Positions 30,085-31,799 of a stretch of 64,000 nucleotides of DNA are shown here, one piece after another. The position numbers and the translations under genes were made by a program. Every line of letters begins with the position of its first letter. Positions within the stretch are counted from its first letter, which is position 1. Origin of the DNA: Alphaproteobacteria bacterium. Its GTDB lineage: Bacteria; Pseudomonadota; Alphaproteobacteria; JAAXGF01. Below the pieces are notes generated by a model that searched no databases, was not told the origin of the DNA, and worked only from the letters and a program-made list of their open reading frames with translations. The stretch is taken from assembly GCA_963555825.3 (NCBI GenBank), contig CAUVXB020000002.1:2592001-2656000 (forward strand), read 5' to 3'.

Positions 30085-30351
30085 CTAGACCAGCTTACGG
30101 AACACGCGGATGGCGCAGACGAAGGAATCGAGCCGCATGCCGCTTTGCGTCAGGCGGTTTTCGATGCGATTGAAGTTAGGCTCGACGATGAGGCCGGCCA
30201 GGATCGCCCGGTCCATCGCCTCCTGAACCTTGTTGACGGTGTCGACGATCTGTTCGGCGATCTCGGGATCGGTCGGCTGATGGATTTCAGACACGGAGCC
30301 GGACGCTTCGACGGGTTCGGCCGTGGCCAGCATGGGAGTCACTGCATTCAT
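30085..30351 (-). CDS. Small hypothetical protein downstream of the GEMM riboswitch
   Basis: 88-aa ORF with RBS agaggaagg and coding-like codon usage. Confidence 0.65.
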   Translation of the reverse strand: MNAVTPMLATAEPVEASGSVSEIHQPTDPEIAEQIVDTVNKVQEAMDRAILAGLIVEPNFNRIENRLTQSGMRLDSFVCAIRVFRKLV

Positions 30352-30493
30352 TTCGCTGCCTTCCTCTTGTTGAATAAGTGACGGGTGCGCGTTTCACGCG
30401 CGGCGTCGGCCGTGCGCGGTCGTCGAAATGGCTGTACGGAAATGCCGCGTCCGTGACGGCGGTCGGGTGAGAACTCCAGGCGAAATCGGTCCG

Positions 30494-30580
30494 TCCTTTC
30501 GCTGGCCCCGCTACCTGACACAGGCCAGGCCGGAGGCTTTGCGTCCCGCCGTTGCCGGCGGTTTGCCATTTCGGGGAAGC
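30494..30580 (-). ncRNA. c-di-GMP-I (GEMM) riboswitch, variant
   Basis: Minus strand CGAAAUGGCAAACC-GCCG-GCAA-CGGC-GGGACGCAAAGCCUCCGGCCU...AGGUAGCGGGGCCAGCGAAAGGA closely follows the Vc2 aptamer. Confidence 0.9.
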
Positions 30581-30692
30581 CGGAACGCATCCGGGCCAGG
30601 GCCCGGCACCGCCTTCACATTCACCGATCGAGCCTAGCGCGAAGCCGGCGTTATGTCAGTGATGCCCGTCACCCGCCGCGGGCGGTTCCGGC

Positions 30693-31799
30693 TCAGAGGC
30701 CGAACGACGTGAGGCCGCGCTGCCAGACGCCCGCCTCGCGGTAGCCCGGCTCGATCATGATCAGGAACGGTTCGTGGGTCGCCCAGCCTAGCGCCAGGCC
30801 GTCCGGCACGTCGATCATGCCAATAACTCAGTCACGTTCTCGGGGGCGACGACCCATAAATGAGAGGCGTTCTTGAACGTTACCGTCTTTTTCGAGACGT
30901 ACTTGTCGATGACGGCCATGACCTCGTTCTCGCGCCGACCCTTCCAGTACCCGTCGTTGGCGGCGACGAGAACACGGGTCTCGACGTCTATGGGGTTGCG
31001 AACATTGCGTAGCGTATGCTCGAGCATCTCGTTGAAGCAGCTCACGGAAACATAGTCCCAGTACAGATTGAAACAAATAAAACGCGATTCGAGGTCGGTC
31101 TTGAAGAAGGTTTTTTTCTGAGATTCGTATCTCCATTTGAACGTCGTGGTGGTTTCCGGGTTCAAGAACTTGAGCAGGTTGTGGTTGGGGTACGCCACCC
31201 AGCGGTGCTCGTTATGAACGAAGCCGTTCATGCGGTAGAAGAAGGGTTCCCAAGAGGTTTCTTCGAAGCGGTCGGGCGCGCAAGCGCCCCACAGAAGCGT
31301 CAGCCGCTTGCTCGCTCGCGCGTCGTTCAATTCATCATAGGCCCTGATGAAATCGTAGAAGCCGTTACTCGAGGCGATAACCGTGACGTCACCGTGCGCG
31401 GCGAGAAGGTCGGACAGGTCCTCGACGATCGCATCGCGCTTCTTGTCGACGTTCTCCACGGTATATTTTTCCCAAATGGGCTCGGTGGCGGAAAATTCGG
31501 GAAGGTAACAGCAGCGCACGTAAATGTTCGCGCCGTACCGGTTGAAGAGGCTGGGAAATATGAACCTGATCTGCCCCGGGACACCGCCGATCCCGGGAAC
31601 GAAATAGAAAATCTTACGAGCCGCTTTTTGACTGCCGTATTCATAAATGTCGTCGTAAAAATGCTTATAGAAGCCCAGGGACTCGATATAGCGTTTTCTG
31701 ATGGTGGCGCGCATGTCACTTCTCCCGCGTTCTCTGGTTCCAGATAACCCGTGTGATGTCGATACCGAAGCCGAGCGGCAGGATACGGATGACCGCCAT
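30693..31799 (-). pseudogene. Possible small gene interrupted by the low-GC hydrolase gene (fragments 31758-31799 and 30693-30815)
   Basis: RBS ggagg + MAVIRILPLGFGID joins in frame to IDVPDGLALGWATHEPF...GL* through a 6-bp repeat. Confidence 0.4.
30815..31714 (-). CDS. Hypothetical protein, probable alpha/beta-hydrolase fold, lower GC
   Basis: FVPGIGG, IASSNG (nucleophile-elbow-like), AANDG, SHLW. Confidence 0.65.
   Translation of the reverse strand: MRATIRKRYIESLGFYKHFYDDIYEYGSQKAARKIFYFVPGIGGVPGQIRFIFPSLFNRYGANIYVRCCYLPEFSATEPIWEKYTVENVDKKRDAIVEDLSDLLAAHGDVTVIASSNGFYDFIRAYDELNDARASKRLTLLWGACAPDRFEETSWEPFFYRMNGFVHNEHRWVAYPNHNLLKFLNPETTTTFKWRYESQKKTFFKTDLESRFICFNLYWDYVSVSCFNEMLEHTLRNVRNPIDVETRVLVAANDGYWKGRRENEVMAVIDKYVSKKTVTFKNASHLWVVAPENVTELLA

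Follow-up and report, generated by a model that had tools for sequence, protein, structure and literature searches.

The window analysed here, a stretch of 64,000 nucleotides from an alphaproteobacterial genome (contig CAUVXB020000002.1 of assembly GCA_963555825.3), carries on its minus strand a c-di-GMP-I (GEMM-I) aptamer, which lies in the 5' leader of a gene for a small uncharacterised protein and on the same strand as that gene (Table 1). A sequence-only reading of this DNA had described a near-canonical aptamer with a GCAA loop on P2, a fully paired P3 and an intact fold, situated about 140 nt upstream of the gene; the spacing is 146 nt, and the rest of this description is borne out by comparison with the Rfam model. 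A search with cmscan recovered RF01051 at 30577..30498 with 64.3 bits and an E-value of 2.8e-10, against a gathering cut-off of 35 bits, with the match extending over the entire model (positions 1-87 of 87). This is the sole match above the gathering score in the window, and RF01051 is also the best-scoring member of its clan (CL00126) for this aptamer. None of the 23 base pairs tested is broken, and alignment to the model shows that the bases of the C44/G83 inter-helix tertiary pair and of the GAC and AG bulges are all there, the docking itself being predicted. With the exception of position 92 (numbering of Vc2) the bases of the pocket and of the tertiary contacts are canonical in the alignment to RF01051. 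These include the G at position 20, for which the assignment to 30567 in the sequence-only reading is confirmed by the model alignment, and the A at position 47, which is shared by all 63 of the aptamers aligned in this study. The window RNA is thus, as judged from its alignment, a genuine c-di-GMP-I-type aptamer with an intact fold.

Table 1. Features of the riboswitch locus in window coordinates
Feature	Coordinates	Strand	Basis or remark
88-aa gene, uncharacterised small-protein family	30085..30351	-	ORF; starts 146 nt after the aptamer
146-nt leader (candidate expression platform)	30352..30497	-	74.0% identical to L099
Shine-Dalgarno-like GAGGAAGG	30360..30367	-	8 nt before the ATG; GGAAGG conserved in L099 and L100
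Candidate anti-aptamer segment	30424..30432	-	complementary to 30573-30565 (5' end of P1, J1/2, G20, base of P2)
c-di-GMP-I (GEMM-I) aptamer	30498..30577	-	RF01051, 64.3 bits
Proposed P1 3' strand (CG, AAA bulge, GG)	30495..30501	-	identical in L099 and L100
G at Vc2 position 92 (model position 83, consensus C)	30502	-	ungapped RF01051 alignment
P3	30504..30537	-	proximal helix, bulge at 30534; fully paired in the model alignment
P3, distal 4-bp stem, loop and AG bulge	30527-30524/30519-30516 (stem); 30523-30520 (loop); 30512-30511 (AG bulge)	-	
A47-A48-A49 junction adenines (model positions 38-40)	30538..30540	-	model alignment
P2 hairpin, GCAA tetraloop at 30555-30552	30546..30561	-	model alignment
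G at Vc2 position 20 (model position 11)	30567	-	model alignment
Proposed P1 5' strand (CCCCG)	30572..30576	-	complementary to 30501-30500 and 30496-30495; P1 as annotated in RF03167

The protein encoded downstream has no Pfam match, and all its Atlas neighbours are hypothetical proteins. Its AF2 model (pLDDT 74) comprises a disordered N-terminus, a helix at 28-51 and a beta hairpin, and has no fold match in the PDB at E <= 0.001; an HU/IHF-like fold was considered and set aside, the resemblance (E 0.5-2, TM about 0.25) being too weak. Its orthologues fall into 13 clusters (P0001-P0013), all of 88 residues and with 72-92% identity. Homologues are present in 8 of the 12 other genomes of the family, and the genome to which the window belongs has seven matches, namely the window gene and six paralogues. 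Three of the paralogous loci (L127, L129 and L130, respectively G000:C1:1139000-1150000, C1:420000-431000 and C2:695500-706500) adjoin the same pair of ORFs of 183 and 231 residues, which together match one DDE_Tnp_1_4 transposase split in two, and the paralogues at C1:425683 and C2:700870 are identical, upstream sequence included.

The distinctive feature of the aptamer is the base at position 92. The 3' end of the model, from C75 to a87, corresponds in the window to C G G G G C C A G C G A A, aligned with no gaps. The structure line of RF03167 leaves the C at model position 83 unpaired, immediately 5' of the P1 3' strand. In Vc2 the pair G14-C93 forms the apex of P1 and C92 lies in J3-1, the 3'-to-1 junction, according to the excerpted text of PMC3764141; taken together, these two placements identify model position 83 with C92 of Vc2. 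The G that had been assigned to this position by an ungapped comparison is therefore where the Infernal alignment also puts it, at model position 83, and no C is placed there. In the excerpts of PMC6140456 and PMC5888326, C92 forms a Watson-Crick pair with one guanine of the ligand, and G20 reads the Hoogsteen edge of the other. Two aptamers, L004, a paralogous copy from the same genome, and L014/L111, from a genome of another family of the class, share the stretch of the window from the AG bulge to the P1 3' strand with a C in place of the one G, which in the case of L004 is the sole difference in the 3' junction.

The base was checked on contigs of four sequencing runs aligned to the window stretch; an index search had found 17 runs from 5 studies that contain 50% or more of the words sampled from 30085-30700. 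Over this interval the contigs of runs X1 and X6, which come from two studies, are identical to the window, and that of X12, from a third study, differs at 30267 only, so that the G, which the sequence-only reading had wished to see confirmed in reads, is carried by independent assemblies. Two contigs of relatives that also span 30502 (X18 record 17 and X12 record 13) do not enter into this result. A scan of a metagenome collection with a pattern fixing the P3 register and requiring G at 92 then recovered three contigs (L099, L100 and L101) with two distinct sequences, L100 and L101 being near-identical to each other and 2.4% from L099. All three represent the orthologous locus, and each has the G92 aptamer, a diverged leader and the orthologous 88-aa gene in the same arrangement as the window. 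The Rfam alignment of L099 and L100 (62.4 bits) has the same register with G at model position 83, and a model of our own (R1) gives L099 90.5 bits. The protein of L099 belongs to cluster P0011 and is 74% identical to that of the window, placing it among the most distant of the orthologue clusters. The possibility that the G is an artefact of sequencing or assembly, or a mutation confined to one strain, is refuted by the contigs from three studies and by orthologous leaders that differ from the window at 26% of their sites and still share the G, and has next to no probability left. By parsimony, the leaders of L099, L100 and L101 suggest that G92 probably predates most of the orthologue clade. 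Runs containing the window locus or a relative of it include ones labelled sponge metagenome and marine sediment.

A strict G92 pattern was also run against one genome for each of 185,579 species, the window's own genome falling outside the answers of that collection. Among the 77 loci obtained none is an in-register G92 aptamer: no more than 5 of the 7 P3 pairs are in register, except in L054 (6/7), where the canonical end is visible further in. The Rfam alignment gives a C in all seven of L025, L076, L081, L032, L084, L053 and L028, and the remaining loci are canonical switches caught through a chance match downstream or non-riboswitch DNA. The pattern is a strict one, its C version catching one of the four copies in the window's own genome, so that G92 cases with other flanks could be missed; applied to 400 genomes sampled from the phylum, the same C version matched in register 7 times, in 6 of the genomes. 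The R1 model, built from 23 aptamers and run on 100 loci, yielded 63 matches, of which 59 have C at position 92, one has U (L114) and three have G (L099, L028 and L053). L028 and L053 are short, low-scoring mis-registrations, for which the longer Rfam alignments give C. With these two rows corrected, and leaving out L099 and the seven matches selected for C (L103-L108), an incidental sample of 55 other aptamers has 54 with C, one with U and none with G. The impression that c-di-GMP-I riboswitches are uncommon in Alphaproteobacteria was about right: they are present in 11 of 150 other genomes of the class, sampled one per family, and the 3' ends of these aptamers read C, save one U. No paper reporting a C92G change, a G92 class or a 'GAG' pattern was found in the literature searched, the main papers on natural variation and their supplements lying outside that search. 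On these collections, G92 is a very rare, inherited variant of a narrow marine alphaproteobacterial clade.

Comparison of the window with L099 allows the different parts of the locus to be contrasted. The aptamer is 93.8% identical (5 differences in 80 positions) and the 146-nt leader differs at 38 of 146 positions, and this disparity is significant (Fisher p = 1.7e-4). The coding sequence of the 88-aa gene is 84.6% identical and the 3' part of a convergent gene for an SH3-domain protein 73.7% identical. The five differences in the aptamer comprise one in the GNRA loop (GCAA in the window, GCGA in the orthologues), one in the P3 bulge, one in the P3 loop and two in distal P3, at 30525 and 30524, which preserve their pairs (G.U to A-U and C-G to U.G, respectively). 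All five are thus neutral with respect to the fold, and both lineages (the window and L099/L100) retain an intact GNRA loop along with all the tertiary-pair bases and junction adenines. This pattern of differences fits purifying selection on the predicted fold; it bears on the fold and not on ligand binding, and at about 26% neutral divergence the conservation of the one site G92 is by itself no proof. The aptamer is also not the sole conserved piece of the region, given that it does not differ significantly (5/80 versus 22/183, p = 0.19) from the 183 nt upstream of it, which are 88.0% identical to L099. This upstream stretch (30578-30760, minus strand), conserved much above the leader, contains the 3' end of a short ORF that stops near 30678 and, immediately ahead of the aptamer, a G+C-rich hairpin, and may be a promoter region or the remnant of a gene. 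Further upstream, 30815-31714 (minus strand) encodes a 299-residue protein without a Pfam match and has a G+C content of 0.52-0.58, against 0.61-0.78 in neighbouring bins; in L099 and L100 its place is taken by a different gene, by eye resembling a [2Fe-2S]-binding small subunit, and the 299-aa ORF stretch looks like an insertion or replacement in the lineage of the window.

The ancestry of the variant can be approached through the canonical copies. The genome of the window has four c-di-GMP-I aptamers, the other three of which have the canonical C92, and among the loci of paralogues and homologues of the 88-aa gene that were fetched a riboswitch was found at L014 only. Here, in genome G015 of the other family, 11 nt separate the end of a canonical C92 switch from the start codon of the homologue, so that L014/L111, like the window aptamer, precedes a member of the same small-protein family. 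The link between the fold and this gene family is therefore older than the G, which is the derived state of a narrow clade rather than a broad class. Orthologous leaders with C92, which would have refuted the sequence-only reading, are not what the close orthologues show: L099, L100 and L101 have G, and it is the more distant homologous leader of G015 that has C. Both L004 and L014/L111 further differ from the window in having, along with C92, a start codon 10-11 nt after the aptamer, as opposed to G92 and a leader of 146 nt.

This difference in layout extends to the class at large. In 12 of 15 switches compared (L110-L125, L003 and L004, most of them drawn from the class sample) a mechanically called ORF of 45 residues or more starts 8-14 nt after the aptamer, and in 12 of the 15 the P1 3' strand continues into AGGA or GGGA. 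The presence of AGGA or GGGA in P1 together with a nearby start codon implies a compact translational-switch layout, in which P1 would hide the Shine-Dalgarno sequence. The proposed P1 3' strand of the window likewise includes the AGGA that is the Shine-Dalgarno sequence in most of the sampled alphaproteobacterial GEMM-I switches. Here the AGGA is kept with no start codon (ATG, GTG or TTG) nearby, and the ATG of the gene, with a Shine-Dalgarno-like sequence of its own, follows only at the end of the leader. In L099 (761-1162) an ATG 8 nt after the AGGA of P1 opens a frame of 133 codons which is stop-free into the small gene, and this riboswitch-proximal frame may be the trace of an older start. 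A coding function of the leader, which is open in L099, was rejected: in the window the frame is displaced by an indel of 1 nt, and no third-position bias of the substitutions is apparent by eye.

No terminator-like or sigma-70-like site was found in the leader region, and the minimum free energy folds differ among the window, L099 and L100. A helix between 30432-30424 and 30573-30565 is present both in the RNAalifold consensus and in the minimum free energy fold of the window, and all 9 of its pairs can form in the window and 8 of them in L099/L100; it is based on three sequences, two of them near-identical. This pairing is the best candidate for the switch: when no ligand holds it, the 5' side of the aptamer would pair with the leader segment. 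With the aptamer pairs held, and the P1 constraint not enforced, the mean accessibility of the Shine-Dalgarno sequence and AUG shows a slight and uncertain decrease, from 0.63 to 0.55, 0.61 to 0.53 and 0.47 to 0.37. The alternative that 30432-30424 acts by masking the AUG through a 7-nt match that the window has between the start region and the 5' side of the aptamer was dropped, with L099/L100 keeping 5 of the 7 pairs by eye. A contig from an RNA library (X18) spans the coding sequence, the leader and half of the aptamer; it may derive from DNA and is therefore no evidence of transcription.

Among known systems, the window RNA shares with the type of RF01051, Vc2 of V. cholerae, the three-helix junction, the GNRA loop of P2, G20, A47-A49, C44/G83 and a position in a 5' leader, and differs from it in having G instead of the C92 that pairs with the ligand guanine. 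The 3',3'-cGAMP riboswitches (GEMM-Ib, as in Geobacter Gs1761) provide a parallel in that the same fold has one pocket base changed (PMC6140456, in excerpt); in these the change is to A at position 20 with C92 kept, whereas the window has G20, at 30567, and G92. The c-di-GMP-I-GGC RNAs (RF03167) are likewise a variant of the same fold within clan CL00126, and are set apart by a consensus G at position 47 (GACGCGAA) where the window has an A (30540). A further Rfam variant model, c-di-GMP-I-UAU, is said to go back to Weinberg et al. in 2017 and reportedly has U at both 20 and 92, in contrast to the G at both positions in the window. In the naming used for these Rfam variants the pattern of the window would be 'GAG', which is seen in no model. 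Rare riboswitch variants with an altered ligand-contact base have repeatedly led to new ligands: variants of the guanine class recognize xanthine and 8-oxoguanine, and the A20 variants of GEMM-I recognize cGAMP (excerpts of PMC7266159 and PMC6140456). A G92 aptamer whose fold appears to be kept across diverged relatives could accordingly be regarded either as a natural experiment on the tolerance of the pocket, tuning the threshold of response to a second messenger, or as a sensor of something else.

The signals available to the cell have a bearing on this choice. The genome of the window (99.3% complete) has five matches to the GGDEF domain and none to the SMODS (CD-NTase) or DAC domains. Two of the five GGDEF domains have an intact GGDEF motif together with an Asp at the base-specifying site, as read from the sequences, and the other three are degenerate. 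We take this Asp to be at the position that specifies guanine. With GGDEF but neither SMODS nor DAC domains, the sole cyclic dinucleotide predicted to be produced by the cell is c-di-GMP, and this favours a c-di-GMP sensor with altered recognition. The three canonical copies similarly imply that control by c-di-GMP riboswitches is in use in this genome. The idea of a pyrimidine-containing cyclic dinucleotide put forward in the sequence-only reading finds no support in this inventory, including the two intact GGDEF domains with their canonical Asp.

To the reading of the window RNA as a c-di-GMP sensor with a changed recognition or threshold we would assign an even chance. It agrees with the full-length match to the model with all pairs kept and everything else in the pocket canonical, with the inheritance of the same G in a lineage with a 74% identical protein, with the significantly lower divergence of the aptamer than of the leader through changes that are all neutral to the fold, with GGDEF as the only cyclic-dinucleotide synthase domain found, with the canonical copies in the same genome and with the C92 switch close to the start codon of a distant homologue. 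Mutants at the two ligand-pairing positions, in the work of Smith et al. in 2010, reportedly retain a biologically useful affinity, which would be in line with such a sensor. The G92 RNA would then still respond to c-di-GMP and read the second guanine differently. G92 might meet the ligand guanine in a purine-purine pair like that between G20 and the other guanine; alternatively, P1 might slip by one base, which would bring the next C (30501) into pairing with the ligand and leave a J1/2 of 5 nt, as in L111. Either would result in a weaker response or a shifted threshold rather than a new ligand. Against this stands the removal by G92 of what is, in the excerpts of PMC6140456 and PMC5888326, the only Watson-Crick pair to the ligand. 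A tolerated G should also recur, whereas the genome scan gave no other in-register case and the incidental sample none in 55. The conservation of the aptamer does not significantly exceed that of the 183 nt upstream, the start codon lies 146 nt away rather than at the 8-14 nt seen in 12 of 15 switches, such that coupling to the gene is not evident, and the anti-aptamer helix draws on few sequences. The analysis also links an uncharacterised small-protein family to predicted c-di-GMP control in two alphaproteobacterial families.

It is conceivable, if unlikely, that the aptamer binds no ligand at all, being a former translational switch that was stranded 146 nt upstream after a new start codon and Shine-Dalgarno sequence took over, and that is kept as a structured leader (e.g. 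for RNA stability) or is too young to have decayed. The usual layout of the class, with the Shine-Dalgarno sequence in the P1 3' strand and the start codon 8-14 nt later, the lack of any ATG, GTG or TTG at that site in the window and the ATG retained by L099 and L100 at 8 nt from the AGGA, which shares the reading frame of the gene over 45 codons, would all be accounted for in this manner. The same is true of the loss of the base that pairs with the ligand, and the conserved 183 nt upstream point to other constraints acting in the region. Against a defunct aptamer stand its 5 differences in 80 positions, all of them harmless to the fold, as against 38 in 146 for the leader, and the intact GNRA loop, tertiary-pair bases and junction adenines of both lineages. 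A long leader is also not unique to this locus, given that the canonical aptamer of L001, in the same genome, lies several hundred nt before its ParA-like gene.

That G92 has switched the ligand also seems unlikely to us; the new ligand would be, for example, a cyclic dinucleotide containing a partner for G (C in a Watson-Crick pair or U in a wobble), a linkage isomer or a linear dinucleotide, and its source could be the cell itself, its neighbours or a host. A single pocket change does re-aim this fold in the A20 switches that sense 3',3'-cGAMP (excerpts of PMC6140456 and PMC7266159), G92 is inherited within a fold apparently under purifying selection, and the great rarity of the variant is as expected of a specialised class. 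The gene under control has no known function, and the sponge-metagenome and marine-sediment runs with the locus or a relative make foreign signals conceivable. The genome, with no SMODS/CD-NTase or DAC match and with canonical GGDEF domains, speaks against such a switch, as do the restriction to one gene in one narrow clade and a pocket that is otherwise unchanged, G20 and A47 included. The list of cyclic-dinucleotide riboswitch classes stood at four in October 2026, with no natural 2',3'-cGAMP riboswitch known (PMC13715770, in excerpt), and C92G was not encountered in the literature searched. In its boldest form the proposal is quite doubtful, namely that this is the first natural GEMM-I to carry a purine where the ligand is normally held by its Watson-Crick pair, and that it now senses a different signal such as a pyrimidine-containing or otherwise non-canonical cyclic or linear dinucleotide. 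Given that the genome has no match to SMODS or DAC, such a signal may not be self-made. If this were true, a re-aimed aptamer would control a small-protein family in marine, sponge- and sediment-associated Alphaproteobacteria. On present evidence the c-di-GMP sensor is the reading that we prefer.

Certain other observations emerged from the comparison of these aptamers. RF03167 outscores RF01051 on several aptamers with A at position 47 (L001:1502-1581, L003:1502-1582, L014:1787-1873, L081, L032 and L084), so that ordinary switches would be wrongly assigned to the GGC variant if annotation were filtered by clan. The incidental sample includes other pocket variants: an A at position 20, the pattern of cGAMP-type switches, is present in a tandem pair in L108 (G132:C36, about 220 nt apart) and in L085, and two copies in L051 have C at this position. 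In L001 (G000:C1, about 460800-462100), L113 and L119 the alphaproteobacterial GEMM-I switch is followed by a gene for a ParA/MinD-like ATPase with an N-terminus of the type MRV.VFASQKGGSGKTTL.
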